From IMG/VR virus record IMGVR_UViG_3300030518_000006, positions 1 through 64,000 of that record: a stretch of DNA of 64,000 nucleotides. The stretch is one strand, 5' to 3'. Shown here piece after piece: positions 33,896-63,800 of this stretch. How positions within the stretch are numbered: the first letter of the stretch is position 1; every line of letters starts with the position of its first letter. The position numbers and the translations under genes were made by a program. The notes beneath the pieces were generated by a model. The model was not told the DNA's origin, made no database searches, and saw only the letters and a program-made list of their open reading frames with translations. The DNA is from a virus.

Positions 33896-33896
33896 A

Positions 33897-35177: not shown

Positions 35178-35178
35178 C

Positions 35179-36456: not shown

Positions 36457-39400
36457 AGGACACGCCACTCCGTGCCATCGTACTGCATGGTGTAGTTCAC
36501 ATTGACGGTCGAGACCACGATCGTGCTGCTGCCGTCGATCGTCCCCGCGCTCGGCGCGATGGTGAGATTATACGTCCCGCTGCCGATCATCTTCACATTC
36601 ACGATCAGGCCGGTCGGCGGGGAGGCCATGAGGGTGATCTGGAAGGCGCTCGAGCTGGTATCTCCCATGATCGTATAATCAGAGGCCAGCATCGTATAGT
36701 TGGAGGTCTTGGTGGAGATCGGGTACGCGACGGCACAGGCAAAAGTCGCATAGAGCGCTTGATTGATCGTGAAGAGCGTCGTGAGGGCATTCGGCGTCGA
36801 GCTGCTCGTGGTCGCCGACGCCACCCGGAAGATGATATTACCGCCGACTCCGGTCCCTGTGCCGATGCCGCCGGCGATCGTGAAGCTGGCGCCAGCGATG
36901 TTGGCTCCTGAGCCGCCTGTGGCGTTATAGATGATTGCCTGCGGGGCAGCATTGGTCTCGCCATTGCCGATGAAGACATTGCCGATGGCGGCGGAATTGC
37001 CGCCTGCGACGAAGCGGTTGCTCGCACCCACGGCGGTCGAGTCCCCAGAGCCATAGCCCAGAAATATGTTGTAGGTGCCGGTGGTGGTCTGGTTTCCCGA
37101 ATCATAACCGATAGCGGTATTGCCAATGCCAGTCATATTGTAGCCTGACCCCAATCCGATCAGGGTGTTATCCCCGCTCGTGGTCAGGGAGAACCCCGCT
37201 TGGAACCCAATACACACATTGCCGGCAGATGACGTCGCCGTGGGTGCGACTTGAGAACCAACGAAGACGTTATCCGCTCCGGACGATGCATGCCCCGAGT
37301 TATATCCGACAATGGTATTGTCACTCGTGCCGACGATACCTGCACCCGCCAGGTTACCCACCAAGGTGTTATGGTTGCCCGTTACGGAGGCGCTGCCCGC
37401 CCCGGAGCCGAAGAATTCATTGGTAGCCACACCGGAGATGTTCGAGTGCAGGCCGGTAGTCGCTGAGAAGGTGAATAGCGTACTGCCAGTGACGGTTGAG
37501 GTCCCGTTCCAATAGGTGACTTCACCTGATGTGCCAGAGCCAGTGACGCCGCCGCCCGCCCCGAAAGGACCAACCGTGGCGCCATTCACGCGCGCATACA
37601 TGCCTGCACTGGTGATCCAGACGTCGCCATTGACGGGCGTAGTCGGGGCCGACCCTTGCCCGATGTTCAAGCCGGCCAAGGTCGTGGTGGAGGCGGGGGT
37701 CAGGACTTCATAGCTGAAGGTGACTGACGGGACGGACGGGGTGGCGGTCATCCAGGTCGTATAGGTACCCGACACCGATGCCCAGAAGTGAAAACTACCA
37801 TCGTCGGCCCCGCCATTAGCAGGGGTACCGAAACCGAAGGTGTTGCCCGCCGTGTTCGACCACCGCTGGAAATTCTGGTTATAGACGTCGGAGGACTGCC
37901 ATGCCCATGCGTAGCCTGCCAGGGGGGAAATGACGGTGAAGAATGAGTCGAGCGCGCTGCCGTTTCCCCAGCTCAAGGCGAGGGGGAAGACGATCGTGTT
38001 CGCGATCGTGGCTGATGCGACCGCGAGAGGGGCGCCAGACGGGTAGCTGCCTGAGCAGCTGCCGCTGATGTTGCCGCCACCTCCGGAGAGTGACGCATAC
38101 GCGCCACCATTCACCGATGCGTAGAAACCCTGGAGCGTATCATCGTAATAAATGGTCCCGCTGTTGCTCGGCGACAGGGCAGGTGCGCTCGTTGTCGCGA
38201 TGCCGGTCCAGGTGGTCCCGCCATCGCCCCCCACCGTCCAACGCGTGGTCAAGGTATTGGGGGTGCTGCTCGACGTCCCGACCGGTGCGGTCTTGATGAT
38301 CACCGCACCGCCCGCTCCCGTGCCCGTGCCAATGCCGCCGGCGATGGTATAGCTGGCGCCGGCAACGTTGGCGCCCGAGCCACCCGTCGCATTGTAGACC
38401 ACCGCTTGCGGACTCGCGGCGGTCTCGCCATTGCCGATGAATACGGTTGATATGGGGGCGCTCAACGAACCGGCCACAAGGCGATTGCTCGCTCCTGCTG
38501 CGGTGCTGTCACCTGAGAGCGCGCCGAGGAAGATGTTGTAGGATCCGGTCGTGTTCGACTCGCCGGCATCGTACCCCATTCCAACCAGGTATTGGCCCGT
38601 GGTTGTGGCCGTCAGTGCGCCGGCGCCGAAAGCGGCATTGTAGGAACCCGAGGAGCCGCCACCGGTCGCTCCCTCCAGTGCACTCAGGCCTACGGCCACG
38701 TTCTGCGACCCGGCGTTGTAGTAGCCCGCCGAAGATCCGATGAAGGTGTTCGGGCCCCCGGCATAGGCACCCCCCGCATGGTAACCGACGAGCGTGCTGC
38801 CGCTCGTACCCGTGATGGCGGCACCCGCGCTCACGCCGATCATCACATTGCTTCCGCCCGAGGTCAGGGCCGCCCCAGGACCATTGCCCAGCAGCGTGTT
38901 GTTCGCCCCGGTCATGGTGGTGTTGCCGGCATTGGCGCCCCATGTCTCCGTGGCCGTGGTGTTGGGTTGGTTGCAGGTCACCCCTGCACCGGTCGTATAC
39001 CGGAGCGTGCTGCTGCCGGTAACGGTCTCAGTGCCATTCCAATAGACCAGCTCACCGGAAGTTCCCGATCCGGTGATGACACTGGATGGGAGATCAGCGG
39101 CCACCAGAGCTCGGAAGGTGGGCGCTGCAGCGGCTCCGGTCGTCGGGCCAGCCCATACGTAGTTGGCCGTCTGGGTCGCCAGGGTACCAGTCAAGGTACC
39201 GGACGCAGTGACGGGCGACCCGGTGACGGTGAATATGGCGGGGAGGGCAAGACCAACACTGGTCACCCCGCCCCCTCCCGTACCAAAAGGCCCGACCGTC
39301 CCGCCATTCACTTGGGCATACATGCCTGCGCTGGTGATCCAGATGTCACCGTTGTTGGGTGATGTCGGAGTCGACCCTTGCCCGATGTTCAAGCCGGCCG

Positions 39401-48752: not shown

Positions 48753-49390
48753 GCGCCAAGCTCACCATCGCCGCTCCACGCCAACCCGTCGCCCAGCTCC
48801 CCATCTGGGACTGGGTTGGCGACGTGCAGTTCTATTCGATGGCCCAGACCCGCAACGCCACAGGAGAATTCTGTGAAGAAGCAACCCGGCATCTCCTCGG
48901 CGGCGAGCGGCTCTCCACCCAAGGAACGGTGGACATCTGCCCGGACATCCGATTGGACGAGCATCGTTATCTTGAGGTTAAATCGGTGGGGGATCGGCGA
49001 TGCGCCCTCCTCTACGAGCATATCCTCGACCGAACAATCCGGTTCGTCCGCCGTAACCGGGTCAAGGTCTTCTATGTCTTCTGGATCCACACCGTTCCCG
49101 CCGCCAAGTGTCCCAGTCTATTCGATTTGCGACGGGCGATGGCCGCATCTATTGATCGTGTCATCATCGTCCCCTTCACCCAGGTGCACGAGGCGATCAA
49201 GGGCATCACGCCCCGGAAGATGAACTACCGGGTCCGGGAGCACAGCGGGGAGCAGATCGCTATGCTCGGCTGGTCGATTCCGGTCAAGCAGCTGAAGGCC
49301 TGGAGCGTCGGACAGCCGCGAATGGCGTTTGACACCGAGGTCTTCGGGTATTCGATGGGTGGGTATCCGGTCTATGGAGACGTGCGATGA
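48749..49390 (+). CDS. PD-(D/E)xK restriction-endonuclease-like protein
   Basis: GEFCEE ... CPDI ... YLEVKS. Confidence 0.7.
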   Translation: MSAKLTIAAPRQPVAQLPIWDWVGDVQFYSMAQTRNATGEFCEEATRHLLGGERLSTQGTVDICPDIRLDEHRYLEVKSVGDRRCALLYEHILDRTIRFVRRNRVKVFYVFWIHTVPAAKCPSLFDLRRAMAASIDRVIIVPFTQVHEAIKGITPRKMNYRVREHSGEQIAMLGWSIPVKQLKAWSVGQPRMAFDTEVFGYSMGGYPVYGDVR

Positions 49391-49527
49391 CCCTTCCCCC
49401 GCCCGTCATCTCGCTTGAGTCGCTGCTCTTCTGGAACCTGGCCGCCGCGGTCGGCATCACACTGCTCGTCCGGTTCTTGGTGCTCTGGCTCGCCCGTACC
49501 CTATTTGGAGAGGGCCATGACCACTGA
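49387..49527 (+). CDS. Small TM protein A (copy 1)
   Basis: 46 aa, identical protein at 52778-52918. Confidence 0.65.
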   Translation: MTLPPPVISLESLLFWNLAAAVGITLLVRFLVLWLARTLFGEGHDH

Positions 49528-49663
49528 GCAGCTATACTACGCGACCGGCATCGCTTCCAATGTTCTGACCATCCTGACCTGCGCCTACACCATCTGGACG
49601 CTCCGCAGCTGGGTGAGCAGCACGGTGAAGAAGGCGCTCGACGACGTGAAGAAAGTGATCTGA
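49517..49663 (+). CDS. Small TM protein B (copy 1)
   Basis: MTTEQLYY..., near-identical copy at 52908-53054. Confidence 0.65.
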   Translation: MTTEQLYYATGIASNVLTILTCAYTIWTLRSWVSSTVKKALDDVKKVI

Positions 49664-49664
49664 C

Positions 49665-50426
49665 ATGCCGAAATACCGCCAGGCGTCCGCGTATTCTCCG
49701 CCCGAGGACCCATTCCCAGTATTGAGGCCCACCATGCCCACCCCCATCCACCCGTGCGATGCACTTACCACACTCGAACCGAAGCAGCAGGGGGCCTTTC
49801 CTGATCCAGTGCGCTTCCCACCGCCGAAGGGCTCGGAGGGTTCCTGCGGCTGCCTCCTGACCGAGTGGCCGAACCCGCTCGATGGAAACCCGCCCTACCA
49901 GAAACTTGAAACGATCTGGCAGCCGCTCTGGGATACCGTCTCGGCCCCAGAAGGCATGAAGGTCATGAACTTCTTCTCCGGCGATCGAGAGGACGACATC
50001 CTCTACGGAGAACGCGACCGCATGGGGTACCAAAAGAAGATGCGCGCCGATAACGGGCGCAGCTTCCCACGTTCCATCGGCGCGATGTTCTGGCCGAAGA
50101 AGTTCACCATGTGGGAGCTCGAGCTGCAGTTCAGTGATCCCAACGGATACGGGGACAGCATCCCCTCGAAGCTCGGCCTGCTCGATACCATCGAAGGCGA
50201 CTTCGCTCGGATCCGGATGCAGATCGGGGAAAAGTGGCATCTCGACCTCCCCTTCGCGTCTTTTTTCAAGGCTAGAGAGGACAACTACCGCGCGGCACTC
50301 TGCACCCCGCTCTTCCTCCCCTCGATACAGAACTTCGGCATCAGCCTGACCTGGCCGCGAGAATCCCGGGCCCGGTGCACTATCCGCTGCGTTCTCAACG
50401 GCTATCTCCACCGCGAAATTCCCTGA
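49665..50426 (+). CDS. Divergent major-capsid-protein-like (single jelly roll) paralog
   Basis: WQPLWDT....FF ... G....PKKF ... QIGEKW.L..P ... PLFLP..QNF.I.L.WP ... I.CVLNG.L.R; recalled SJR-MCP pattern. Confidence 0.55.
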   Translation: MPKYRQASAYSPPEDPFPVLRPTMPTPIHPCDALTTLEPKQQGAFPDPVRFPPPKGSEGSCGCLLTEWPNPLDGNPPYQKLETIWQPLWDTVSAPEGMKVMNFFSGDREDDILYGERDRMGYQKKMRADNGRSFPRSIGAMFWPKKFTMWELELQFSDPNGYGDSIPSKLGLLDTIEGDFARIRMQIGEKWHLDLPFASFFKAREDNYRAALCTPLFLPSIQNFGISLTWPRESRARCTIRCVLNGYLHREIP

Positions 50427-50434
50427 GCCTGACC

Positions 50435-50785
50435 ATGCCCCTCTACCACCTCCTCGCTCAGCCCCTGCCCAAGCTCACTCCCGACGGGAAGCGCGTCTGG
50501 GTCTGCATCTGCGGCCAGAAGGTCGCCCTGCCGAACGTCCAGCCGGCGAGCCAGGTGATCCAGACCTCGAACAACCGGGTGGAGGTCATGGAGTGCCCGG
50601 CCTGCTATGCTGGTACCGAGGAAAAGGGCGAAGAAGCCCCTCCGATGACCGAGCAGGGGGATATCAAACCGACCTTCGACCAAGATCTGGGAGATGCCAC
50701 GGACGACCAATCTGCGCCGGATGAGACGGGTGAAGATGGGGAGGTTCTGGAGGAGGAGAAGGTCGACTTCCCTGACGCGCGATGA
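50435..50785 (+). CDS. Zinc-ribbon protein C with acidic tail (copy 1)
   Basis: CICG ... CPAC; paralog at 53056-53406. Confidence 0.7.
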   Translation: MPLYHLLAQPLPKLTPDGKRVWVCICGQKVALPNVQPASQVIQTSNNRVEVMECPACYAGTEEKGEEAPPMTEQGDIKPTFDQDLGDATDDQSAPDETGEDGEVLEEEKVDFPDAR

Positions 50786-52617
50786 CCCGATATGGAAGCC
50801 TTTGTAGCGGTATTGAAGCAGCCACCGTTGCTTGGGATGGGATGGGATGGGAACCTGCATGGTTTAGCCAGTTCGATCCACAGCGTCCTGAAGGAGATTT
50901 CCCCTCTAGAATACTGGCCCACCACTACCCTGAAGTGCCTAACCTTGGGGATATTACATCTGAGAACTGGCTGACTCGGGCTTCAAGCTATGGCGATATC
51001 GACGTATTGGTTGGTGGAACCCCCTGCCAAGCGTTTTCCATTGCCGGGTTGCGCAAAGGCCTTGAAGATCGCCGGGGCCAATTATCCCTTCGTTTTGTGG
51101 AGATAGCCGATGCCGCAGACCCACCCGTCATCCTCTGGGAAAACGTCCCTGGAGTCCTTAGTGATCGAACCAATGGATTCGGTTGCCTCCTCGCTGGGCT
51201 TGCCGGTGAAGATGTGCCGCTCCAGCCAGCAGGGCGAACATGGTCGAACGCTGGTTGTGTGTTTGGCCCCAAAAGAACAGTCGCATGGCGGGTCCTCGAC
51301 GCCCAATATTTCGGACTGGCCCAACGACGCCGGCGTGTGTTTGTTGTCGCAAGTCCTGGAGCCAGCGGCATCGATCCATGCGAGATTCTATTTGAGTTCG
51401 AAGGCGTGCGCCGGGATTCTCCGCCGAGCCGCGAAGCGGGGGAAAGTACTTCCCATCCAATTGCACCGTGCCCTGATCGGAGTGGTACAGGGTTCAGTCG
51501 AACCGGAGATATCCGGGGACAGGATCCCGTTGTAGTCTGCATTACAGGTGATCGGACTCACGCGCTGAGCGCGGAAGGTGCAGATGCAGGTGAAGATGGA
51601 ACGGGACGGGGAACCCCAATTATCGCTGTCGGAGGAAATAATACTAGCGGCCCTATTACTGTTGCTGCTGCTTTGAATGCGAATAGGGGATGCCCTAACC
51701 CAGGAGACTTTGAGGCTGGAACCTTGCTTGTCGCCTTCGATACGACCCAGATCACTAGTAAGACGAATCGCTGCCAGCCGAAGCACGGAGATCCCTGTCA
51801 CCCTCTTGCTGCTGCTGCTCATCCTCCGGCGATAGCGATCCAGGAGCGAGCGATCTGTGAGAACCCCGATGCTGGACCTGATGGGATCGGGGTTCGCACT
51901 GATGACTGTGCTTATATCCTGGAAGCTCGAGGCGTTTCGCAGGCAGTATGCTTCCACCCGACACAAGACCCGATCCCGAATAGCGATAATATCTGCCATG
52001 CTCTTGGTTGCGGGAACGGTCAGGGGCACGCAGCAGCAGCAGCAGTGAATATCGGGGTTCGGGTCCGCCGTCTTACTCCTCGCGAGTGTGAACGCCTGCA
52101 GGGATTCCCAGATGACTATACTGATATCCCAAAGAAAGTCTTTCGAGGTACCCCGAAAGACTCAGGCCCATGTAAGAAACAAATTGTTGTCGCCACTGTT
52201 GTTTCATTGAACGGCACCCATTATGTTGGCACAAATCATACGATGAACCCTCAAACGACTTGCCCCCGGGCTGGAATGCCAACTGGCGTCGGATATGAAT
52301 TATGTCGCTCAATATGCCAGCAAACGGCACATGCAGAAGTAAACGCTCTTCAGCTTGCGGGCCGTAAAGCTCGCGGAGCAATACTTTATATAGAGGGGCA
52401 CACATACGCTTGTGAGCCTTGCCTTAAAGTAGCTAAAGCCGCCGAGATTAGTTCTATTGTTTTTGGGAAGCCTCCTGGCACCAGCGCCGATGGCCCCCGC
52501 TATAAAGCTCTTGGAAACAGCATGGCTGTCCCGGTAATGCGCTGGTTGGGATGGCGGATCGACAGTGCCTTGCGTACACGTTTGGGTGGGTATCCGGTTT
52601 ATGGGGAGATTCGGTGA
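50782..52617 (+). CDS. dcm: C5-cytosine DNA methyltransferase with long modular TRD and inserted dCMP-deaminase-like domain
   Basis: SLCSGI (I), GGTPCQ (IV), WENVPG (VI), AQRRRRVF (VIII), RRLTPRECERLQGFP (IX), YKALGNS (X); HAEVNA...CEPC between IX and X. Confidence 0.9.
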   Translation: MTRYGSLCSGIEAATVAWDGMGWEPAWFSQFDPQRPEGDFPSRILAHHYPEVPNLGDITSENWLTRASSYGDIDVLVGGTPCQAFSIAGLRKGLEDRRGQLSLRFVEIADAADPPVILWENVPGVLSDRTNGFGCLLAGLAGEDVPLQPAGRTWSNAGCVFGPKRTVAWRVLDAQYFGLAQRRRRVFVVASPGASGIDPCEILFEFEGVRRDSPPSREAGESTSHPIAPCPDRSGTGFSRTGDIRGQDPVVVCITGDRTHALSAEGADAGEDGTGRGTPIIAVGGNNTSGPITVAAALNANRGCPNPGDFEAGTLLVAFDTTQITSKTNRCQPKHGDPCHPLAAAAHPPAIAIQERAICENPDAGPDGIGVRTDDCAYILEARGVSQAVCFHPTQDPIPNSDNICHALGCGNGQGHAAAAAVNIGVRVRRLTPRECERLQGFPDDYTDIPKKVFRGTPKDSGPCKKQIVVATVVSLNGTHYVGTNHTMNPQTTCPRAGMPTGVGYELCRSICQQTAHAEVNALQLAGRKARGAILYIEGHTYACEPCLKVAKAAEISSIVFGKPPGTSADGPRYKALGNSMAVPVMRWLGWRIDSALRTRLGGYPVYGEIR

Positions 52618-52781
52618 TCCATATCGTTCTGTGTTCAGCCGTAGTTCTCCTTATCGTAGGGTTAATGCTTTATGTCACGGAGAGGCGGTTGCGAAGCTGG
52701 CCGGTATTTGTCCGCGTGTTATGGTATACAATGCTCGTTGTGGCAGCCTTCAATACTATGCACGGAGCATTTTTCGAATGA
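52614..52781 (+). CDS. Small two-TM protein (low GC)
   Basis: GTGA and ATGA coupling. Confidence 0.55.
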   Translation: MIHIVLCSAVVLLIVGLMLYVTERRLRSWPVFVRVLWYTMLVVAAFNTMHGAFFE

Positions 52782-52918
52782 CTCTTCCCCCGCCCGTCAT
52801 CTCGCTTGAGTCGCTGCTCTTCTGGAACCTGGCCGCCGCGGTCGGCATCACGCTGCTCGTCCGGTTCTTGGTGCTCTGGCTCGCCCGTACCCTATTCGGA
52901 GAGGGTCATGACCACTGA
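52778..52918 (+). CDS. Small TM protein A (copy 2)
   Basis: Duplicate of 49387-49527. Confidence 0.65.
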   Translation: MTLPPPVISLESLLFWNLAAAVGITLLVRFLVLWLARTLFGEGHDH

Positions 52919-53054
52919 GCAGCTCTACTACGCGACTGGCATCGCCTCCAATGTTCTGACCATCCTGACCTGCGCCTACACCATCTGGACGCTCCGCAGC
53001 TGGGTGGGCAGCACGGTGAAGAAGGCGCTCGACGACGTGAAGAAAGCGATCTGA
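52908..53054 (+). CDS. Small TM protein B (copy 2)
   Basis: Duplicate of 49517-49663. Confidence 0.65.
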   Translation: MTTEQLYYATGIASNVLTILTCAYTIWTLRSWVGSTVKKALDDVKKAI

Positions 53055-53055
53055 C

Positions 53056-53406
53056 ATGCCCCTCTACCACCTCCTCGGCCAGCCTCTCAACATCGACCCC
53101 AACACTGGCAAGCGCATCTGGGTCTGCCTGTGCGGGCAGAAGGTGAGCCTGCCGAATGTCCAGCCGGCGAACCAGGCGATCTCGATCTCCAACAACCGGG
53201 TGGAGGTCATGGAGTGCCCGGCGTGCTACAACGCCACGGATGAGAAGGAGGAAGAGGCCGCGCCGGTCAGCGAGACCGACGGGGAGCTCAAGCCGACCTT
53301 CGATCAGGACATCGGCGAGGCCACTGATGACCAGGAGGCACCTGACGAGACCACCGGCGACGGTGAGGTGCTCAAGGAAGAAAAGGTCGATTTCCCGGAT
53401 ACCTGA
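53056..53406 (+). CDS. Zinc-ribbon protein C with acidic tail (copy 2)
   Basis: CLCG ... CPAC. Confidence 0.7.
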   Translation: MPLYHLLGQPLNIDPNTGKRIWVCLCGQKVSLPNVQPANQAISISNNRVEVMECPACYNATDEKEEEAAPVSETDGELKPTFDQDIGEATDDQEAPDETTGDGEVLKEEKVDFPDT

Positions 53407-53838: not shown

Positions 53839-54324
53839 ATGGGTTACACCCGCACCCCGGCGCACTACACCGCTAGCGCTGCCTATCACGGCGGCGATCC
53901 GGTGTGGATCCGCCCTGCCAATCTCGACCTGCGCCGTATCAACCCCCAAGGCGGGGCCGCGCTCGGCGACGACGGCATTGACCTGATCGCGATGATCCCC
54001 CAGCTGACCCAGACCCTGGCAACCGTGGGCACCACGGCAGTCCAGTTGCGGGAACAGCAGATCCAGAACCAACGCCAGGACGCGAACCAGGCCCAAGCCG
54101 TCGCCGCGACGAATGCGCAGACCGCCGCCCTGGAGCAAGCAACGGCGGCGAACCAAGCCGTCGCCGACCCAACCGCATCGCCTGCGGCGGTACCGACTCC
54201 AGGCGTGTCACTTCCCACCCCGCACGGCAAGAAGGGGGGCGGCATGACTGTCCCCCTGATCATCGGGGGTACCGTCATCGGGATTGCCGTGGTTCTGGCA
54301 TTGCTCAAGCTCCGCCGGGGCTGA
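53839..54324 (+). CDS. Putative virion membrane protein (C-terminal anchor)
   Basis: Ends PLIIGGTVIGIAVVLALLKLRRG; AALGD motif. Confidence 0.75.
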   Translation: MGYTRTPAHYTASAAYHGGDPVWIRPANLDLRRINPQGGAALGDDGIDLIAMIPQLTQTLATVGTTAVQLREQQIQNQRQDANQAQAVAATNAQTAALEQATAANQAVADPTASPAAVPTPGVSLPTPHGKKGGGMTVPLIIGGTVIGIAVVLALLKLRRG

Positions 54325-54325
54325 T

Positions 54326-55540
54326 ATGGCCCGGTCCTACCAGCCCAACCTCGGGGCGCTCGAGCAGGCCCGGTACCAACACATGCACCGGAGAGCACGC
54401 AACCAGCTGGCCGGGTTGGGAGACGCATCCGTTCCGTACGTCCCGTCGGTCGCGGTCCAGGCAGCGATGACCCCGAACCTGACGGGCAGTGGCCCGACCA
54501 TGACCCAGACCGCAGCGGTCACCGCCACCATGAAGTCGGCAATCATCGCCGCGGCGGTTGAGGTGTCCCTGGCCCAGACCATCGTCTCCACTGTCGGGGA
54601 TGCCGTTATCAGCGCGGCCACAGTCGCCGCTGCCACGGCAATCACCGGTACTGCGGTCGCCGCAGGAGCCGCCGCCACGTCTGCATGCTTGTCCGCCGGG
54701 TGCTGCTGGCCGATTGTCGGGTGGGCCTTCGACGCCTTGGTGATCATCGGGGAATTCATCTCCAGCCAATCCGCCAAGCGCCAGACGGCGTTCGTGATCC
54801 AAGAGACCAAGGATCATATCAGCGCCTATGGCCAGGCGGCCCAGGCCGAGATCGACGCCATGCAACTCCAGATCGGGCAGTCCGTCTACCCGACCGCACA
54901 GGCCCTGGCTGCGTCGACCCAGGCCCTCAACGGCTTCAACGGACTCGGGGGTCTGCCGCCGTGGGCTCGGGAAGTGATCTCCAAGGTCCAGGTCGATCTG
55001 ATCAAGCAGGTCGGCAATCTGATCCTGAGTACCGGTGAACTCGGGGCCAAGATCGTGGGGGACAAGCATGGGGAAGAACTGGCTGCTAAGAAAAAGAAGC
55101 AGTTCGACGACAACTCGGACCGGGTCCAGCAGATGTTCTCCGGCAAGCTCAAGAACCCCTACCGGATGTTCGCCGACGGGCTCGACGATATCGGGCGCAC
55201 CCTCGGGGGTGAGCAGGGCGTGCACGTGATCAACCAGAAGTGCTCTGAACTCCAGACGGCGGCCGAGGCAGACATCGATACCTGGAAGACCCAGACCGAG
55301 GCGGTGCTCCAGACCCCCGACTACACCCAAGCGGTCACCGTCAACATCGCCAAGGCCCTACGCGCGGACCCGAGTTTTACCGCCAATGTCACCACGATCG
55401 CGGCCAACAACCAGATGCTGGTGGCCTACTTCAACGGACTCAACGGGCTCTCCACCGACTCGTCCCGAGCGAACAGCGCCGGTGGCTTGGTGGCGACCCT
55501 CGGAGGCATCGCTGCCGCCCTCTATTTCTTTAAGCATTGA
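54326..55540 (+). CDS. Putative virion membrane/penetration protein
   Basis: LAGLGD, FNGLGG motifs; Ala-rich hydrophobic hairpin ..WPIVGWA..; C-terminal TM. Confidence 0.75.
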   Translation: MARSYQPNLGALEQARYQHMHRRARNQLAGLGDASVPYVPSVAVQAAMTPNLTGSGPTMTQTAAVTATMKSAIIAAAVEVSLAQTIVSTVGDAVISAATVAAATAITGTAVAAGAAATSACLSAGCCWPIVGWAFDALVIIGEFISSQSAKRQTAFVIQETKDHISAYGQAAQAEIDAMQLQIGQSVYPTAQALAASTQALNGFNGLGGLPPWAREVISKVQVDLIKQVGNLILSTGELGAKIVGDKHGEELAAKKKKQFDDNSDRVQQMFSGKLKNPYRMFADGLDDIGRTLGGEQGVHVINQKCSELQTAAEADIDTWKTQTEAVLQTPDYTQAVTVNIAKALRADPSFTANVTTIAANNQMLVAYFNGLNGLSTDSSRANSAGGLVATLGGIAAALYFFKH

Positions 55541-55621: not shown

Positions 55622-56293
55622 ATGGCTGGCTACCCCTCGATCAATGCTCCCGGCGCCCGTTCGCTCGCGGTGCCCCCGCCCAAGAGCCTGAAGATCCCGC
55701 TCGGGCGCCGACTGGACGCCAAGATGGCGAAGAACCTCATGTCCGCCCGCCCCAAGCGCGTGCCGCGCGACAATGGCGGCGGCGGGTTCTTCCCCGGCAT
55801 GGGTGAAGAGATGGACGAGACCGAGGTCAAGGTCGGGTACTCCGATCTCGGCCGGTGGTACGGCCCGAACCAGCGCCGCCCGGCGACCAGCGGCATGGCG
55901 CGCACCAATCGCCTTGCCGGCCTGGGCGACACCCCGACCGCCGGCTCCGGCACCCCCGGTGCGGCCACCGCGGCTCCCGCCCCGATCATCAAGCGCGTGC
56001 CCAATACCCCGCGTCACCTGGTGACCCAAGGCACCCCGACATCGATCTCCTCGGTCTCCGGCCTCGGCGCGCTGCACGCGGCAGCCCACGCCGCCCACGC
56101 CAAGACCAAGCATGCGGCGATCGTCAAGCACGCGGCGATCAAGGTGCACAAGCTCGCCCCGGCACACGACGGGTTCATGCCCGGCTTCGGCGCCTTCGAC
56201 ATGGCGAGCCTGACCAGCCCCAAGATGCTCATCGGCGGGGCGCTCGCCTTCGGCGCCTGGTATTTCCTGCTCCGCAAGAAGCGCCGCGCCTGA
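55622..56293 (+). CDS. Basic virion protein with multiple hxG(L/F/M)G motifs and C-terminal anchor
   Basis: FPGMGE, LAGLGD, VSGLGA, MPGFGA; ends ALAFGAWYFLLRKKRRA. Confidence 0.75.
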   Translation: MAGYPSINAPGARSLAVPPPKSLKIPLGRRLDAKMAKNLMSARPKRVPRDNGGGGFFPGMGEEMDETEVKVGYSDLGRWYGPNQRRPATSGMARTNRLAGLGDTPTAGSGTPGAATAAPAPIIKRVPNTPRHLVTQGTPTSISSVSGLGALHAAAHAAHAKTKHAAIVKHAAIKVHKLAPAHDGFMPGFGAFDMASLTSPKMLIGGALAFGAWYFLLRKKRRA

Positions 56294-56296
56294 GCC

Positions 56297-56746
56297 ATGG
56301 GCTGGCTGACCCCCGAGATCACCGCCCCCGTCACCCTGAAGCTCACCGCTGATGACGTGCGGCGCGAGGCCCTGGGGCGGATCCTGTCGCTCTCCGGGGC
56401 AAGTGTCGGCATCATCGGGGGCATCCTGATCCTGTCCGCGAATCCGGCGCTCAAGGGCGCGGTCACCGCCGGACAGGGCCAGACCATCACCCTGAGCGTC
56501 GCGGACGCCAAGAAGAGCGCCCTGGGCAAGTCCTTGGCCCTCATCGGTACTGGCATCGGTGTGGCAGGCTCCCTGCTGGTGATGAGCTCGAACCCGAAGT
56601 CCAAGGCCAAATTCGCGTCCGCCTATGACGCCCTGCCCGCCGGACTCAAGACCCACAAGAACGTGCTGATGGCCCTCGGTGGTGCCGCCGTGGTCGGCGG
56701 GATCGCCTACATGCTCAAACTCCAGAACTCGCAGTACGCCACATGA
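56297..56746 (+). CDS. Three-TM membrane protein
   Basis: Three Gly-rich hydrophobic segments. Confidence 0.75.
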   Translation: MGWLTPEITAPVTLKLTADDVRREALGRILSLSGASVGIIGGILILSANPALKGAVTAGQGQTITLSVADAKKSALGKSLALIGTGIGVAGSLLVMSSNPKSKAKFASAYDALPAGLKTHKNVLMALGGAAVVGGIAYMLKLQNSQYAT

Positions 56747-58536
56747 GCGACAACATCTTCACCCCGGTCGGCAACACGGACGAGGCGTCGGCCCTGATGG
56801 GAACCAGCGGCCGGGTCTGGTCCCCCTTCTCCCCGTTCTTCAACCAGCGCGCCGCGGTGAAGCGAGACTTCGCCGAAGAGCGCGGCCGGTTCAAGCGCAT
56901 CATGCGCCGCAATCCCCTCTCCGAGCAGGAGAAGCTCGCCCTGGTCAGCGGCACCGATCCCAAGGCTATCGTCCCGGTCACTGCCTCGCTCGCCGTCGGC
57001 GGCTTGATCGTGAACCGTGCTTGGGAGGATGCCGCTGACTACTGCGAGTATCTGGTCCGCCACTACCATTCCCGGATAGGTGGTGCGCGAGCGAAGGCGG
57101 ACGCTGCGCGAGCGAAGAAGGGGCAGGGCCCGAAGATCATATCCAGTTCAGCCATTACCTGGGCGGTGGCGTTCAGCGCCATCGGCCAATACTGCAGGGC
57201 CCTGGCCGAGGGCCGGGAGCCGACGCGCCCTGCGCGCACCATCGCCGACCGGAAGGTGGGGGCGGTGATCTCGATGTGGGATGACGTCCGCAAGTCCTGC
57301 CTGGCCGCGGAGGGCAACGTCAAGCTGCCGTTTGCCGCCTATTCCGAGATGCCGGTGGTGACCTGCCCCGGTGCCGGTGGGGTGACCAAGTTCTCCGGCC
57401 TGACGGGCAAGACCCTCGGCGTGGCAGTGCCAACCGGTCCCGATGTCCGCGGTTGCGCGTCCTTCTGCTACTCCCTGAAGGCCTTCGGCAAGCCCACCTG
57501 CGTCGCCCGCCAGCTGATCCTGACCCTCGGCGCGGCTGTGGATCCGGTGCGCCACGCCCAGGTAGTCACCGAGCAGATGACCAAGCTCGCCAAGAAGGGG
57601 ACCAAGATCCTGCGCCTGTTTGTCGATGGGGACTTCCGCAGCGAAGCCTCGATCATTGCCTGGATGGACCACTGCGTCCGCCCGCTGCATGCGCTCGGCG
57701 TCACCGTCTATGGGTACAGCAAGTCGTGGGAGCATCTCCATGCCGTGCACCGGCAGAAGGGCGCATCCTGGTGGCCGACCAACTATGTGATGAACATCTC
57801 GAGCGGCAGCCGCTTCGCATCGGATCCGACCTGGCAGGCGCGCATCCGTGAACTGCCGGTTGCCCGCGGCGGTTTCCTGGCGGTGGATCCAATCCAGCGT
57901 CTGCTGTGGAAGGCGATGACCAAGGTTCACGGTGAAGCGGTCTGGCAGAAGTACTGCAACGCGGCCAGCCGACACGTCGGTCACCCCGGTGCGGCCGAGA
58001 AGCTCCTGCATGCTGTGAAGTCCATGATTGGCAAGGCGAACCCGGCCCTCGTCACCGATTACAACAACTACGTCAACACCATCCACATCATCGAGAATAA
58101 GCCGAGTGTGCTCAAGCGCATCGCCTCGATCGCCGGCGAGAAGGCACTCAAGCCGGGCCCAGTTGTCCAGGCCAGCACCTGGGCCTTCTTGTCCGAGCTG
58201 GTCAAGGGGCAGGAGATGCCGTGCCCGATCGCATGCGGGTCGTGCCCAAAGACCGCGATCATCACCCACGACAAGGTTGTGCGCGCCGCCTTGCAGCCGG
58301 AGCTCGATGCCCTCGGGGCCGAAATGCAGAAGAAGCACGGGATCTCGGAGAAGGAGCGCCGAGACTGGGAGGAACACGTCCGGGGCACCGACGCGACGAC
58401 CGTGTCTGCTGGCGAGGCTGAGGCCCGCAAGAACTACCGCGCCCAGGTCGCCGCCCAGATCGAGAAGGGCTCACCGCTCATGCACTGGTGCGGGAACAAG
58501 AAGATGAAGCAAGACATCATCATCGGGTTGCATTGA
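56743..58536 (+). CDS. GP88-like Cys-motif protein with N-terminal RRNP
   Basis: TCPGAG ... CASFCY ... LRLFVDGDF ... YGYSKSW ... PTNYVMNISSGS; CPIACGSC. Confidence 0.7.
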   Translation: MSDNIFTPVGNTDEASALMGTSGRVWSPFSPFFNQRAAVKRDFAEERGRFKRIMRRNPLSEQEKLALVSGTDPKAIVPVTASLAVGGLIVNRAWEDAADYCEYLVRHYHSRIGGARAKADAARAKKGQGPKIISSSAITWAVAFSAIGQYCRALAEGREPTRPARTIADRKVGAVISMWDDVRKSCLAAEGNVKLPFAAYSEMPVVTCPGAGGVTKFSGLTGKTLGVAVPTGPDVRGCASFCYSLKAFGKPTCVARQLILTLGAAVDPVRHAQVVTEQMTKLAKKGTKILRLFVDGDFRSEASIIAWMDHCVRPLHALGVTVYGYSKSWEHLHAVHRQKGASWWPTNYVMNISSGSRFASDPTWQARIRELPVARGGFLAVDPIQRLLWKAMTKVHGEAVWQKYCNAASRHVGHPGAAEKLLHAVKSMIGKANPALVTDYNNYVNTIHIIENKPSVLKRIASIAGEKALKPGPVVQASTWAFLSELVKGQEMPCPIACGSCPKTAIITHDKVVRAALQPELDALGAEMQKKHGISEKERRDWEEHVRGTDATTVSAGEAEARKNYRAQVAAQIEKGSPLMHWCGNKKMKQDIIIGLH

Positions 58537-58605: not shown

Positions 58606-59040
58606 ATGATCCGCCGACGCCGCAGCCATCGCCGCTTCCGCCGCAACGCGCGCCCTGGTGAGAACCAGATCCCGACCGTGCGCATCGTCCGCCGGCCGAG
58701 CAAGAACCCCCGCCGCTTCATCCGCCGCAATGTGCCGATCACCCCGGCGCAGGCTGCCGCGATGAAGGCTGTCCTCCGAGCTCACGGCTACCTCAAGACC
58801 AACCCACTCCGCCGTCGCCACAAGCGGCGCAATCCCCGAAAGCACCGCATGGCACGCCATCACCGCAAGGTCCGCCGGAACCCCGCACCCCCGAAGGGCA
58901 AGCGCGCTGGCAGCGTGTTCAAGCGCAAGGGCAAGTGGTTCCGCATCTCACTCAAGAAGGTCCGCAAGGGTCGCCGCGTCGTCCGCCGCCGCGTCACCGT
59001 CAAGACCACCGCCCGCGCCGCGAAGCGCAGCCGCCGCTAA
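58606..59040 (+). CDS. Protamine-like Arg/Lys-rich core protein with (R/K)xNP repeats
   Basis: Extremely basic; SKNP, KTNP, RRNP x2. Confidence 0.75.
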   Translation: MIRRRRSHRRFRRNARPGENQIPTVRIVRRPSKNPRRFIRRNVPITPAQAAAMKAVLRAHGYLKTNPLRRRHKRRNPRKHRMARHHRKVRRNPAPPKGKRAGSVFKRKGKWFRISLKKVRKGRRVVRRRVTVKTTARAAKRSRR

Positions 59041-59074
59041 GCCTGCTCACCCTCACCTGATTCTGGAGACTCCC

Positions 59075-59305
59075 ATGCCCCGTCGCCGCCACAGCCGCTA
59101 CCGCCGGAACCCCGGCAAGCTCCCCGTCAAGGTCACCTTCCGCAAGGGTGGCAAGCACGTGGTGATCTTCCGTCACCACAAGGCCACCGCCGCGACCAAG
59201 GCCAAGCGCCGGGCCGCGGGCAAGCGCCTTGCCAAGATGTGGACCGCCAAGGAGCGGATGGCGAACCTGCGCAAGGCGTGGGCTGCGAACCGCCGCCGTC
59301 GCTGA
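59075..59305 (+). CDS. Small basic core protein with RRNP
   Basis: GGAGA RBS; MPRRRHSRYRRNPGK. Confidence 0.75.
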   Translation: MPRRRHSRYRRNPGKLPVKVTFRKGGKHVVIFRHHKATAATKAKRRAAGKRLAKMWTAKERMANLRKAWAANRRRR

Positions 59306-59378
59306 GTCGACCGTCAGCTGACCCGCAGCCCGGTCCTCCGCATCCTTGCGCGACCGGGCGGCACACCAGGACGAGCAC

Positions 59379-60470
59379 ATGCTCCCGCTCATCATCGGCA
59401 TCGGCGCCGCAGCCCTCCTCCTCGGCCGTAAGGTCGTACGACGGACACGTCGGAATCCGCGGACGTATCGGCGGGTGAGTCGGAGGAATCCGCTAGAGGC
59501 CTATCACTTCTACTTCAGCACCCACCCGTCACTGATCCACGGGAAGCGTATCGGGTGGACCCGTTACGGCATGAGCGCCGAGCAAGTGAAACGGCTTGGC
59601 ATCGCAGCAGCGAAACATGACTACCCGAAGGCCTGTGACTTCGCAGTGGCGAAGATCAAGAAAGGTTTACGGGCCAACCCCCTCCGCCGCGGCTCCTCCC
59701 GTGCCACCATCAGCGGCAACATCCGTAAGCTGATCCATGAAGGGCGCCCGCAGAAGCAGGCCATCGCCATCGCGCTGCGCACCGCTGGTGTCGCACGACG
59801 CAACCCGACCAACTGGGAGCAGCTGTTCGCCCAGGAGATGGCCCGCCAGCGCGCCGCTGGCACTGCAGCGCCCAAGCCGACCGGGTATGCAAGCGTCGCG
59901 ACGATGCCGAACCCCGGGAAAATAGGGAATCGAATCGTCGCGCGTCACATGATCATGACGCAGGGGCGTGATAAATCTCTGCGCGAAGCGATTGATAAGC
60001 AACTCATGTATTCCCCTGGATCCAGGGAGCGTAAGAACTGGGCAGAGATTGCCCGTATCCTCGCGGGCAAGACCAATCCACCCCGCCGCAAGGGCAAGCG
60101 CAAGGTCCGCCGCTCAAAGATCTCGGTGAGTCAGGCTGCGGCGCGGCTGATGCAGTGGCGGTGGCATCACAACCCGGGAGGCAGCGATCTGGTGCCCTGG
60201 ATTGTCGAGACCACCGAGATGCGCGGCTTCTCCCACGGCAAGCCCAACATCCGCACCGAGAAGAGCGCCTTCCGCGGTAAGAGCCACACCGCCAAGGCTC
60301 TCGCTGCTTGGGTGCTGCGCTACAACCAGTCCTTCACCTCGGGCGGGGTCAACAGTCACGCTTCCAAGGCCTTCGGCTACGAGCCCTACGCCTTCAAGGC
60401 CAAGCTGATCAACCAGCGCAATGGGCGAGTCGCCGCGACCTACAGCGCTCCGAAGTTCCAGGTGCTCTGA
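59379..60470 (+). CDS. N-terminally anchored basic polyprotein-like protein segmented by xxNP motifs
   Basis: AGGA RBS; TM MLPLIIGIGAAALLLG; RRNP x3, RANP, MPNP, KTNP, HHNP. Confidence 0.75.
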   Translation: MLPLIIGIGAAALLLGRKVVRRTRRNPRTYRRVSRRNPLEAYHFYFSTHPSLIHGKRIGWTRYGMSAEQVKRLGIAAAKHDYPKACDFAVAKIKKGLRANPLRRGSSRATISGNIRKLIHEGRPQKQAIAIALRTAGVARRNPTNWEQLFAQEMARQRAAGTAAPKPTGYASVATMPNPGKIGNRIVARHMIMTQGRDKSLREAIDKQLMYSPGSRERKNWAEIARILAGKTNPPRRKGKRKVRRSKISVSQAAARLMQWRWHHNPGGSDLVPWIVETTEMRGFSHGKPNIRTEKSAFRGKSHTAKALAAWVLRYNQSFTSGGVNSHASKAFGYEPYAFKAKLINQRNGRVAATYSAPKFQVL

Positions 60471-60473
60471 CCC

Positions 60474-63400
60474 ATGCGCTCCGCCACCCCCTCCCTCGCC
60501 GACGGCGACATCAACGCCGACTACAGCGTCCTGCCGGAGAACGGCAACGACGCGGTCGACGCGACCGTCCAGAAGATGGTCGAGATGGCGGCCGGCAAGT
60601 GGGGCCGCGAGAGTCCCAAGATCCGCGCTGCGGCGATCAACATCGTGCGGGGTCTGGATCCGATCACTGGCGAACGATTCGCGCCTCAGGTCGCCAGCAA
60701 GGACTACTACGGGATGCTCGAGCAGATCCACAACTGGGTCCGCGACAACATCATGTATGTCAAGGACGTAGTGGGTCAGGAAACCCTGAGTTATCCCGAA
60801 GAAACGCTCTTCAACTCCCGTGCAGAGGACTGTGATGGGCAAGTGATTCTGGAGATGGCCCTCCTCGGCTCGATCGGCTTGCAGAGCTATCCCGTCATCG
60901 TCGGGATGTTCCCGGGCCACTACTCACACGTCTACATGTATGCCGAGGTGCCCCCGGGGCGCCATCGCAACGCCGACACCACCTGGGCCGCCGATCCCAT
61001 CATGAAGGACTGGCCGCTTGGCAGGGAGGCCCCGGCTGATAGGGTCAAGGCTAAGAAGGTCTACTCGAACCTCGCAGGATTTAACATGCCACTCAACGGA
61101 TATGCTTCTTCCGACGCGGCGTTCTCTCCCCAGGACGAGCTCGAGGCCACGCAAGTCGGCACCGTGCTCGCCACCCGCCTGACCGACTCCGGGGGTGCTG
61201 GGCAGATCGTCAATGCGAACCGCCTGACCCAGTGGGGCGATGAGCTGGACGACATGTTCAATGCCGAAGCGACCGTCAATCCGATGCAGGCCGCGCCTGC
61301 CAGCCTGCTCTACGCCCGCGGCCCGGTGGTCGCCCGTGCAGCACGCGAGCAGACCTCCTACCTCAGCGAAGCCCCGCTCGGCGGGGGACGCAACCGGCCC
61401 GGGATGCGCCGTGGCCCCCTGATCATCACGGTCAAGGACAAGGCAGTCGGCGATTCGGTCACCAAGCCCAAGGCTCCGACCGTCAACGGCCTGATGGGCC
61501 TGGCAGACTACCTCGGTGAGCTCGCCCCGATCGCCAAGGTGGTCGGCAAGCGCATGAGCGTGAACGGCAAGCGCGACGCGCTCCATGCCACAGCGGCGGC
61601 AGCCCACCTCGCCAAGAACCAGGCCAAGAAGGCGACCAACCGGGTGGTCAAGCTGCAGCGCGACGGGTTCATGCCCGGCTTCGGCGCCGACATGCAGCCG
61701 GACAAGACGCTCGATGTCGCCATGCAGATCGAGAAGCTGGCCCACCAGGTCTCGGCCCAGGCCGATCAGATCGCCCAGCTCGCCGCCGGCAGCAGCCCAC
61801 TCCGCCAGCAGGCCCTGAGTGTCGATCTCGGGGCGATGGACTACATGAACGAGCATGCCGCGGTGTCGGACCTGCTCGACAACATGCAGCTCCCCAACGT
61901 GCCGACCAAGGACATGGCCAAGCTCAAGTCCGTCGCCCTGGTCAACTGCATCCAGGATCCGGACGTCAAGCAGCTCGCCGTCGATCTCGCCCAGACCGAT
62001 CTGCCGACCGCACCTGGTGCACGCGTCAAGACCCGGCTGCCCGAGGGCGCCATCGTGCGTGACCAGATGGGCAAGGTCATCCAGAATGGCGGGGGTGATG
62101 ATAGCCTGGCCGGCCTGGGCGAACTCACCCGCAAGCGCCGCATCAAGCGCGCCCTGGCCGAGTTCAACGAGAGCACCGACACCAGCGCCATCGCCAACGC
62201 CCTGCGCGCCTCGGCGAATGGCCTGGCGGGCTACGCGAATGAACCGGGCCTCGGGCGTTCCCTGAGCCAGGCCATCAGCGGCGTGGCCAAGTCCGTGGTC
62301 GCCAGCATCACGGTCCCCGTCAAAGCTGCGGTCGCGACCGTGGTCGACCCGATCAAGCTCGCCCAGACCGTCGCCACCGGCGGCTCGGTGAAGGCGGCGC
62401 TCACGAGTGACGTCCAGAACGTCACCAACCCGATGAACCAGGCGCTCAAGCAGATCGTCACCAGCACCCAGAAGGCTCCCTCGACCCCGGCGACCCCGGC
62501 GACCCAGTATGAAGACGCCAACGGCAATATCATCAGCGCTGGGTTGTACAACAGCCTGATGTTGAACCCGTCGACCCCTGAGAGTTGCTTCGACGCGAAC
62601 GGCAGCGCCCTGAACACGACCGGCTGCGTCTACGCGCCGGGCACCCCGGGCGCGACCGTGACCCAGACCACCGGCGCGTCGACCCTGTCCCAGTTCCCCG
62701 GCGGGACCTGCTTCAGCGCATCCGGTGCCTCGACCGGTGCGACCGGATGCTTCAGCCCGTCGACCGGTGCGGCCTGCTGGACCTTCACCAGCGCCACGAC
62801 CGCCCCGACCGCGACCAACGCGGCCCCGGACTGCCCGATGGCTCCGGTGTCTGGATACAACCCCCAGGTCATGGGCCCCTATGCCAGCGGCCCGGGCGCT
62901 CAATGCTTCAACGTGACCACGGGTCAGCCGACCGGTGTGCCGGGATGCACGAGCCCCTCGACCGGTGTGGCGTGCTACGCCTGGCAGGGCCCGTCCGCCC
63001 CGCCGGTCGCGACCAATGCCGCGCCTGACTGCGCCGGGGCGACGTACAATCCGTACGCTGCCCAGCAGCCGTACTATCCGCCCGGCGGCGGTGCGTCACC
63101 GTACGACCAGTCCACGCCCGATGGCACCAACTACGACCCGAATACGGGTGAGAGCCTGACCTCGACCCCGGACTACTCCAACCAGGGTCCCCCGGACGAC
63201 AGCGGCTTCGGGCCCGACCAGATGGGCCCGGCGTCCTATGCGGACAACAGTCAGCAGGACGAGAACACCGTGGCGGTCTCGGCCAGCGGTGGCGGCGGGT
63301 TCGACCCCTCGGGCAACTCGGGCATCACCGCCGGCGGCCAGTCTGACAGCGGTGATGATGGCTCGGATGATGGCGGCTCGGATGATGGCGGCTCGGATGA

Positions 63401-63800
63401 TGGCGGCACTGATGATGGCTCGGGCGATGCGACCGATGTGTCCCAGTACAACGCCCCGTCCCAGGCCCCGAAGCACAAGAAGCACAAGTATTACAACATG
63501 GACACCGACTCGGGCGGTGACAACTCGGACACCAGCGACAGCGGCGAGGCCTCCGACGATGACAGTGACCTCGACACCGGGATCAACGGCGACGTGGCCA
63601 CGGGGGACATGTACCCCGAGGACGATCTCAACGAGGATGGGGGCGCCGGCTACGGCCGGGGCACCGCCCTGACCCCGTCGATCGAAGGCCTCGGGGCCTT
63701 CTCCGCCTCCAGCCTGGTCAAGCCGGCACTCGCGATCGGCCTGGGCATCATCCTGTGGAAGACCGTCGGTAAGAAGCTCTTCAAGCGGAAGCGTGCCTGA
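60474..63800 (+). CDS. Transglutaminase-like (Cys-His-Asp) domain fused to long virion polyprotein-like region with C-terminal anchor
   Basis: WVRDNIMY..D; EDCDG; YSHVY; WAADP; then multiple GLG/GFG motifs, Cys repeats, acidic region, TM plus KKLFKRKRA. Confidence 0.8.
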   Translation: MRSATPSLADGDINADYSVLPENGNDAVDATVQKMVEMAAGKWGRESPKIRAAAINIVRGLDPITGERFAPQVASKDYYGMLEQIHNWVRDNIMYVKDVVGQETLSYPEETLFNSRAEDCDGQVILEMALLGSIGLQSYPVIVGMFPGHYSHVYMYAEVPPGRHRNADTTWAADPIMKDWPLGREAPADRVKAKKVYSNLAGFNMPLNGYASSDAAFSPQDELEATQVGTVLATRLTDSGGAGQIVNANRLTQWGDELDDMFNAEATVNPMQAAPASLLYARGPVVARAAREQTSYLSEAPLGGGRNRPGMRRGPLIITVKDKAVGDSVTKPKAPTVNGLMGLADYLGELAPIAKVVGKRMSVNGKRDALHATAAAAHLAKNQAKKATNRVVKLQRDGFMPGFGADMQPDKTLDVAMQIEKLAHQVSAQADQIAQLAAGSSPLRQQALSVDLGAMDYMNEHAAVSDLLDNMQLPNVPTKDMAKLKSVALVNCIQDPDVKQLAVDLAQTDLPTAPGARVKTRLPEGAIVRDQMGKVIQNGGGDDSLAGLGELTRKRRIKRALAEFNESTDTSAIANALRASANGLAGYANEPGLGRSLSQAISGVAKSVVASITVPVKAAVATVVDPIKLAQTVATGGSVKAALTSDVQNVTNPMNQALKQIVTSTQKAPSTPATPATQYEDANGNIISAGLYNSLMLNPSTPESCFDANGSALNTTGCVYAPGTPGATVTQTTGASTLSQFPGGTCFSASGASTGATGCFSPSTGAACWTFTSATTAPTATNAAPDCPMAPVSGYNPQVMGPYASGPGAQCFNVTTGQPTGVPGCTSPSTGVACYAWQGPSAPPVATNAAPDCAGATYNPYAAQQPYYPPGGGASPYDQSTPDGTNYDPNTGESLTSTPDYSNQGPPDDSGFGPDQMGPASYADNSQQDENTVAVSASGGGGFDPSGNSGITAGGQSDSGDDGSDDGGSDDGGSDDGGTDDGSGDATDVSQYNAPSQAPKHKKHKYYNMDTDSGGDNSDTSDSGEASDDDSDLDTGINGDVATGDMYPEDDLNEDGGAGYGRGTALTPSIEGLGAFSASSLVKPALAIGLGIILWKTVGKKLFKRKRA
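63354..63423 (+). repeat. Tandem 15-bp repeat GATGATGGCGGCTCG (DDGGS)n
   Basis: Direct reading, about 5 imperfect units. Confidence 0.85.

Follow-up and report, generated by a model that had tools for sequence, protein, structure and literature searches.

A tail-anchored transglutaminase-fold protein and a conserved glycine tag suggest a candidate maturation protease in an uncultured bacterial virus

The DNA analysed here, called the window below, spans the first 64 kb of an IMG/VR record from an uncultured bacterial virus (IMGVR_UViG_3300030518_000006, 96,773 bp, rated complete by CheckV). The open reading frame (ORF) at 60474-63800 of the + strand encodes a protein of 1108 amino acids (aa), the target of this study. 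We tentatively propose, giving it slightly less than even weight, that the target works as a LapG-like maturation protease tethered to a membrane, with itself and the products of neighbouring genes as substrates. The proposal is grounded in the transglutaminase fold of the N-terminal domain, its conserved Cys-His-Asp triad, the aspartates that flank the cysteine, the layout with a C-terminal anchor, and the specificity, enrichment and positional conservation of a short glycine motif, the tag [LMVI]-x-G-[LMF]-G. The tag would be the cutting site and this enzyme the cutter, and the places and times of cutting would be those set out below. A second IMG/VR contig (L005, IMGVR_UViG_3300021083_000537, 34 kb) encodes an N-terminal domain 100% identical to that of the target, which means that this virus has been assembled two times or more.

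The ORF starts with ATG and its base composition is of the coding type, with a G+C content of 0.86 at third codon positions (GC3) compared to 0.51 at second codon positions (GC2). The preliminary description of this DNA had assigned a transglutaminase-like domain to the N-terminus of the product and a catalytic triad to the motifs EDCDG, SHVY and AADP; both assignments are borne out. The three residues are Cys120, His152 and Asp174. In an alignment of 103 sequences, D98, D119, C120, D121 and H152 are invariant; D174 is invariant in an alignment of 16 sequences that comprises the closer homologues. The AlphaFold2 (AF2) model, built on the homologue alignment, has a predicted local distance difference test (pLDDT) score of 96–98 across aa 21-200. 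In the model, C120 opens the helix 120-133, H152 opens the strand 152-158 and D174 lies just past the strand 170-173. These predicted elements have the classic arrangement of papain and the transglutaminases, and the geometry of the triad is deduced from the match in fold. The predicted N-terminal domain has a true transglutaminase fold and a conserved Cys-His-Asp triad, and it looks like an active enzyme.

All structural neighbours are members of the transglutaminase superfamily; no other fold was present among the top 30 structural matches of Foldseek and VIA. The best PDB match by VIA is the putative protease 3KD4 (Z 14.0, root-mean-square deviation 3.0, 146 residues aligned). Further matches include PNGase (Z 10.8), factor XIII (Z 10.5; the range for factor XIII, TG2 and TG3 is 10.1–10.5) and 3ISR (Z 10.0). 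PeiP (Z 8.9), PeiW (Z 8.7) and LapG (4FGO, Z 8.5) are located lower down, and the papain-fold effectors OspI, SseI and SpvD are weak neighbours (Z 3.6–4.7). The LapG-family structure 4U65 was matched by Foldseek at E 7e-4. Among putative proteases, structural similarity is highest to 3KD4 (BDI_1141, from Parabacteroides) and 3ISR (from Cytophaga hutchinsonii); as both are structural-genomics entries whose titles name no function, they inform on the fold only. At the sequence level, the target scores 16.5–18.8 bits against PF01841 (Transglut_core), under the gathering cut-off of 23; the family is matched by all 103 aligned homologues at E ≤ 0.01, the best at 6.2e-16. In a sequence-profile search of the PDB, 3ISR is top among the transglutaminase folds (E 0.014), and the remaining best matches are low-complexity noise. 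No family of the PHROGs database was matched by the 1108-aa target.

An exhaustive HMMER search with aa 1-330 returned 957 cluster representatives at E ≤ 1e-3, 68 of them at E ≤ 1e-30. The homologue P0001 is full-length and shares 81% identity with the target across aa 5-329. Long homologues share one plan, with the enzyme domain followed by variable linkers and by a C-terminal helix with a basic tail; the shortest homologues contain the enzyme domain and the anchor, and nothing else. A scan of genome contigs found two contigs of metagenome-assembled genomes only and gave no host call.

In 11 of the 150 best homologues (P0002, P0005, P0008, P0015, P0023, P0044, P0049, P0050, P0051, P0069 and P0071), an insert of 130–321 aa is placed exactly ahead of the catalytic Cys. 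The insert begins with Cys-Leu and finishes with His-Asn, and the catalytic Cys comes immediately next. The insert of P0002 matches Intein_splicing (E 1.6e-8); its rejoined exteins read NSRAGD-CDDQVILEM, and the counterpart in the target is NSRAEDCDGQVILEM. Both full-size inteins (about 300–320 aa) and mini-inteins are present, in host homologues that are 79% to about 46% identical to the target. Inteins settle at strongly conserved active-site positions. Cys120 is indirectly marked as a critical residue, because inteins target exactly that position. The P0002 intein also contains YLADGW, which by eye resembles a LAGLIDADG-type homing-endonuclease motif.

Among 50,697 phage records, the single match was gp34 of SSIP-1 (40% identity over aa 85-165, E 4e-7), which is annotated as a structural protein. 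In a viral structure library, the best match was a protein of 304 aa (E 4.3e-11), as long as gp34. Like the target, gp34 contains a transglutaminase-like domain with DCDG, HVY and DP and ends in a C-terminal hydrophobic helix. Different from the target, it is 304 aa in size, compared to 1108, and has neither the long linkers nor the Cys repeats nor the acidic tract. SSIP-1 is a tailless phage with an internal membrane and two capsid protein types (PMC6356626). The layout of gp34, with an N-terminal transglutaminase-like domain and a C-terminal membrane helix in a protein of the virion gene block, is also found here, in a virus that is presumably tailless.

The preliminary description had also spoken of segments delimited by GxG. 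The motif does exceed chance; it is specific, conserved and tied to this protein family and its neighbours. In the + strand operon at 53.8–66.4 kb, G[LFM]G was seen 17 times, compared to 4.9 ± 2.2 expected from within-protein shuffles (maximum 12 in 1000 shuffles); elsewhere in the genome, the same shuffles give 21.3 ± 3.9 for 26 seen. Across 21 related metagenome loci, there are 161 instances compared to 64.3 expected. As a control, every G-X-G in the related loci was counted and compared with shuffles inside 30-aa blocks, which keep the local composition. G-L-G (115 compared to 46.0, z 11.1) and G-M-G (53 compared to 15.8, z 9.9) stand far above all other G-X-G, the next being G-C-G (13 compared to 4.5, z 4.0).

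Of 358 non-redundant instances, 77% have L, M, V, I or F two residues ahead of the first Gly, and this position played no part in picking the instances. Directly before that Gly there is a small residue (A, P, S or N), and the second Gly is mostly followed by A, D or E. In the genome studied here, the hydrophobic position is filled in 11 of the 17 operon instances, compared to 7 of the 26 elsewhere (Fisher p 0.026). Combined with the G-X-G pattern, the hydrophobic position therefore gives the extended tag. The alignments A1 and A2 held sequences too varied to be scanned for patterns.

The positions of the tag in the protein were read from an alignment of the target and 23 homologues, in which the tags form conserved islands amid variable linker sequence (Table 1). 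The pLDDT score falls from 97 to 57 in the residue block of the first tag. Around it, in the 16-sequence alignment, L200 and G202 are at least 90% conserved, and Y197 and Y210 are invariant. A strict G[LFM]G lies 15–60 aa past the catalytic Asp in 48 of 85 homologues, compared to 18 ± 4% in random windows of the same proteins. At the other end of the protein, G[LFMWI]x occurs at most 30 aa ahead of the C-terminal helix in 57 of 85 long homologues, the distance to the anchor being 10–25 aa, with the consensus V-x-G-L/F/M-G-D/A.

The tag is also present in proteins encoded nearby. The gene order around the enzyme gene is kept in related metagenome loci (21 loci fetched). The neighbour family of the genes starting at 63803 and 64688, which is unrelated to the enzyme, keeps GF[MI]PG[ML]G[ADE], and several other tail-anchored proteins of the related loci carry G[LM]GA near the anchor. 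Positions 61661-61688 in the target gene and 56167-56194 in the ORF at 55622-56293 are an exact 28-bp DNA match, both encoding GFMPGFGA; this identity suggests either recent gene conversion or very strong constraint on the tag.

Because both the target and neighbouring proteins carry the conserved tag, we propose a particle-maturation protease of the adenovirus style. It is the simplest account, since it covers the enzyme, the tag at the enzyme's own boundary and the tags in the neighbours. The target would be a virion protein, with its enzyme held on the viral membrane by the last 30 residues (anchor and basic tail). It would cut at [L/M/V/I]-x-G-[L/M/F]↓G (the arrow marks the cut), beginning with itself, behind the catalytic domain and in the linkers. 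The next cuts would fall in neighbouring tail-anchored membrane proteins, many of which would thereby be freed from their anchors. The outcome would be particle maturation as in adenovirus, where an unrelated protease cuts at (M/I/L)XGX↓G. In the register of adenain, the adenovirus protease, the pieces of the target would be 1-203, 204-343, 344-403, 404-548, 549-587 and 588-1073, with the anchor at 1074-1108.

In fold and in the C-H-D triad, the target is like LapG and DvhG (BTLCP, PF06035, MEROPS C93). DvhG contains D316-C317-E318, the flanking acids of which are a predicted active-site calcium site; both DvhG and LapG cleave the motif [T/A/P]AAG between small residues, freeing a large protein from its retention module (PMC13090378). 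Acids also flank the nucleophile of the target, as D-C-D compared to D-C-E in DvhG; with regard to calcium this is a likeness of sequence pattern only. PF06035 has no match in the target, and 8 of the 103 homologues match it weakly (best E 0.0014). LapG and DvhG are periplasmic and cut [T/A/P]AAG in a separate adhesin. Different from them, the target is viral, tail-anchored, fused to its presumed substrate and without a signal peptide, and the tag is [LMVI]xG[LMF]G.

The sites of adenain are (M/I/L)XGX↓G and (M/I/L)XGG↓X, the cut site in pVI included (PMC4246237). Like these sites, the tag, whose instances are candidate sites here, is composed of one hydrophobic residue, any residue, Gly, any residue (here L, M or F) and Gly. 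As would be the case for the tag, the adenain sites are spread over several virion precursors, one of them, in pVI, lying near the C-terminus and followed by a basic peptide. This pVI site reads IVGL↓GVQSLKRRRCF. Adenain is non-homologous to the target; it has its own fold, and its catalytic residues occur in the order His54, Glu71, Cys122, compared to Cys120, His152, Asp174 here. The resemblance may concern a working mode, not a family.

Several points weigh against the proposal of a maturation protease. Protease, isopeptidase, transglutaminase and deamidase are not separable by fold alone. The tag pattern was picked after the data had been seen; the scan of all G-X-G and the hydrophobic position are less biased. 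G-F-G, tried as a general member of the tag, is not enriched across the related loci, though it is frequent in the window. The homologue clade of P0006-P0010 and P0013 is without the pre-anchor tag. The region of SSIP-1 gp34 is poor in the tag, with five G[LFM]G in 19 proteins. As SSIP-1 and the minimal homologues keep the core of enzyme and anchor without the tag, this core may have another primary role.

One such role would be in entry. A virion-borne cell-wall peptidase on the viral membrane would open peptidoglycan as that membrane meets the host envelope, with a chemistry like that of PeiW and PeiP, the transglutaminase-fold pseudomurein endoisopeptidases of methanogen phages; on this account the glycine tag would serve separately, as a motif for assembly or as a hinge. 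We regard this account as unlikely. In PRD1, the membrane-associated lytic enzyme P7 opens peptidoglycan at entry, and the order of the parts, hydrolase first and anchor last, is like that of P7. PeiP and PeiW are structural neighbours of the target, psiM2 PeiP has rank 7 in the viral structure library, the minimal homologues and gp34 retain domain and anchor without the tag, and a scan of about 50 ORFs brought up no other lysin. However, PeiW and PeiP score below the putative proteases 3KD4 and 3ISR, and both the fixed place of the tag behind the domain in most homologues and its recurrence in many neighbour proteins are left unexplained. Wall-binding repeats of the PeiW/PeiP type were not recognised in the target with Pfam. 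It is quite unlikely that enzyme and tag are unlinked features, in which case the tag would be a docking or packing motif (for example of a capsid or vertex protein) or a host-protease site, and the enzyme would act elsewhere, for instance by deamidating or cutting a host protein after delivery. The tie between enzyme and tag rests on their co-occurrence, and OspI, SseI and SpvD appear as weak structural neighbours, both of which favour that account; the fact that distant homologues, too, have the tag where their enzyme domain ends speaks against it, as does a tag form equal to that of a known viral protease site (PMC4246237).

A transferase is very unlikely in our judgement. The enzyme would be a true transglutaminase or a sortase-like transpeptidase that forms a thioester at the tag and passes the protein to an amine, either a capsid lysine or a lipid head group. 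The particle would thereby become cross-linked, or a covalent anchor would take the place of the peptide one. Factor XIII, TG2 and TG3 are close in the structural comparison. Sorting signals of sortases and exosortases resemble a short motif that precedes a hydrophobic helix with a basic tail, and 57 of 85 homologues, together with neighbour proteins, carry such a three-part C-terminal signal. Eukaryotic transglutaminases have other residues than D-C-D around the nucleophile, and D-C-D instead resembles the flank in the LapG-family protease DvhG; moreover, many tags are internal and distant from any anchor, and a conserved Gln or Lys partner was not seen. For the cross-linker that the preliminary description had named as an alternative, there is no specific support. 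A narrower version, which we consider highly improbable, takes the tag, hydrophobic helix and basic tail together as a virus-encoded sorting signal and the enzyme as a sortase-like transpeptidase that would cut G-[LM]↓G and join the new carboxyl to a capsid lysine or a lipid amine. If true, the shell would be joined to the inner membrane by covalent bonds in place of peptide anchors, a new way of building a lipid-containing particle.

If the maturation protease does cut at [LMVI]-x-G-[LM]↓G, two unrelated enzymes would have come separately to one site grammar. The enzyme would also offer a way into the assembly and uncoating of widespread, uncultured large viruses of soil and freshwater; the family is large, with its 957 representatives, and its active site is targeted by inteins. 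In full-text literature searches, we found no transglutaminase-fold maturation protease for tailless, membrane-containing bacterial viruses, and we know of no maturation protease of any kind described for them. Eukaryotic viruses of the same structural lineage, such as adenovirus, use proteases of a different fold.

The features of the ORF and of the neighbouring genes are collected in Table 1. The other segments of the preliminary description, namely the Cys-rich units, the acidic tract and the C-terminal hydrophobic helix, were all found in the ORF. The Cys-rich repeats are limited to P0001 and P0002 among the homologues; in the target, the full copies start at aa 746 and 811 and the degenerate copy at aa 705. 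The hydrophobic helix is followed by the tail KRKRA, and an N-terminal signal peptide is absent from the 1108-aa protein, the N-terminus of which is MRSATPSLADGD. The suggestion of an internal start at ATG 61086, which would give a form without the enzyme, was unsupported. This ATG encodes Met205 in NLAGFNMPLNGY (aa 199-210) and has AGGA 7–10 nucleotides upstream. We reject the internal start because the operon genes do without a Shine-Dalgarno sequence (0 of 16) and because AGGA merely belongs to the Ala-Gly codons of the LAGF motif.

Table 1. Coordinates of the target, its segments and tags, and tagged neighbours in the window
Feature	Coordinates	Strand	Evidence or conservation
Tail-anchored neighbour; LAGLGD near N-terminus, NGLGG internal	54284..55540	+	
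Neighbour protein with the same anchor and basic tail; four tags (FPGMGE, LAGLGD, VSGLGA, MPGFGA)	55622..56293	+	
Whole target ORF: enzyme domain, linkers bearing tags, Cys-rich repeats, acidic tract and anchor at the C-terminus	60474..63800	+	GC3/GC2, full-length homologues
Predicted transglutaminase-fold (papain-like) Cys-His-Asp domain, aa 1-203	60474..61082	+	AF2, VIA, PF01841 in homologues
Codon of catalytic Cys120, within D119-C120-D121	60831..60833	+	Invariant, helix start, intein insertion point
Codon of His152	60927..60929	+	Invariant, first residue of strand 152-158
Codon of Asp174 (DPIM)	60993..60995	+	Invariant in 16 closer homologues; after strand 170-173
L200-A-G-F-N204, end of folded domain; candidate self-release site	61071..61085	+	L[AS]G[LF][GN] in 23 homologues
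L340-M-G-L-A344, consensus ELxGLADYL	61491..61505	+	Conserved island
M400-P-G-F-G404 inside GFMPGFGA	61671..61685	+	Kept as GFMPG[FLM]G or MFGLGAE
L545-A-G-L-G549	62106..62120	+	Kept in closest homologues P0001 and P0002 only
L584-A-G-Y-A588, family consensus xLAGFFSK	62223..62237	+	Conserved island
Cys-rich repeats, aa 705-860, CF..G..TG..GC.SPSTG.AC...ATNAAPDC	62586..63053	+	Two full copies, one degenerate
Acidic Asp/Ser/Gly-rich low-complexity tract; holds conserved FGPxDMGPA island near aa 911	63186..63653	+	
I1070-E-G-L-G1074 just ahead of anchor; candidate anchor-release site	63681..63695	+	VxGLGD island
C-terminal hydrophobic helix and basic tail, ..PALAIGLGIILW KTVGKKLFKRKRA	63708..63797	+	Same ending in SSIP-1 gp34
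Start of next gene (to 64678, beyond the window); tail-anchored protein with GFMPGMAGFAGLG; its paralogue (64688) comes next	63803..64000	+	

Directly upstream of the target gene, 58606-60470 (+) encodes very basic proteins rich in (R/K)xNP repeats; part of one of them, 374 aa in size, matches phrog_2423 (E 1.4e-12). Further upstream, 56743-58536 (+) encodes a 597-aa protein that matches Pfam GP88 (E 6e-10) and is kept in the related loci L012 and L013 (44–45% identity). A second ORF of 597 aa, at 17766, was compared with the one at 56743, and the two are unrelated.

The virus is likely tailless and lipid-containing. Among about 50 ORFs, terminase, portal, HK97 capsid and tail-tube families were not recognised. 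The single Walker-A protein found is a helicase, and no packaging ATPase was recognised. The capsid candidate is a conserved 191-aa protein of the virion gene block, encoded downstream, at 69700-70275 (6700-7272 in the related locus L003), which is accompanied by four small beta-rich proteins. Its jelly-roll matches are weak (Z 6–7.7, below the trusted level) and its model is poor (pLDDT 57.7), so that we infer a tailless jelly-roll virus and claim no more. A paralogue of the 191-aa protein, fused to an antitoxin-like segment (PHROG phrog_4692), is encoded at 67563-68738 (-).

Elsewhere in the window, three tandem paralogous genes at 32615-36468 (-), encoding 426–429 aa each and 72–81% identical in DNA, adjoin the gene of a 1071-aa protein with weak PHROG matches to tail-spike and virion proteins; they probably encode variants of a spike or fibre. 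A direct repeat of 283 bp, 97% identical between its copies at 49387-49669 and 52778-53060, flanks the gene at 50782-52617, which joins a C5 cytosine methyltransferase and a cytidine/dCMP deaminase domain. At 5613-10490 (+), a 1625-aa protein is encoded in which the family A DNA polymerase domain is confined to the last 440 aa, besides a large N-terminal part.

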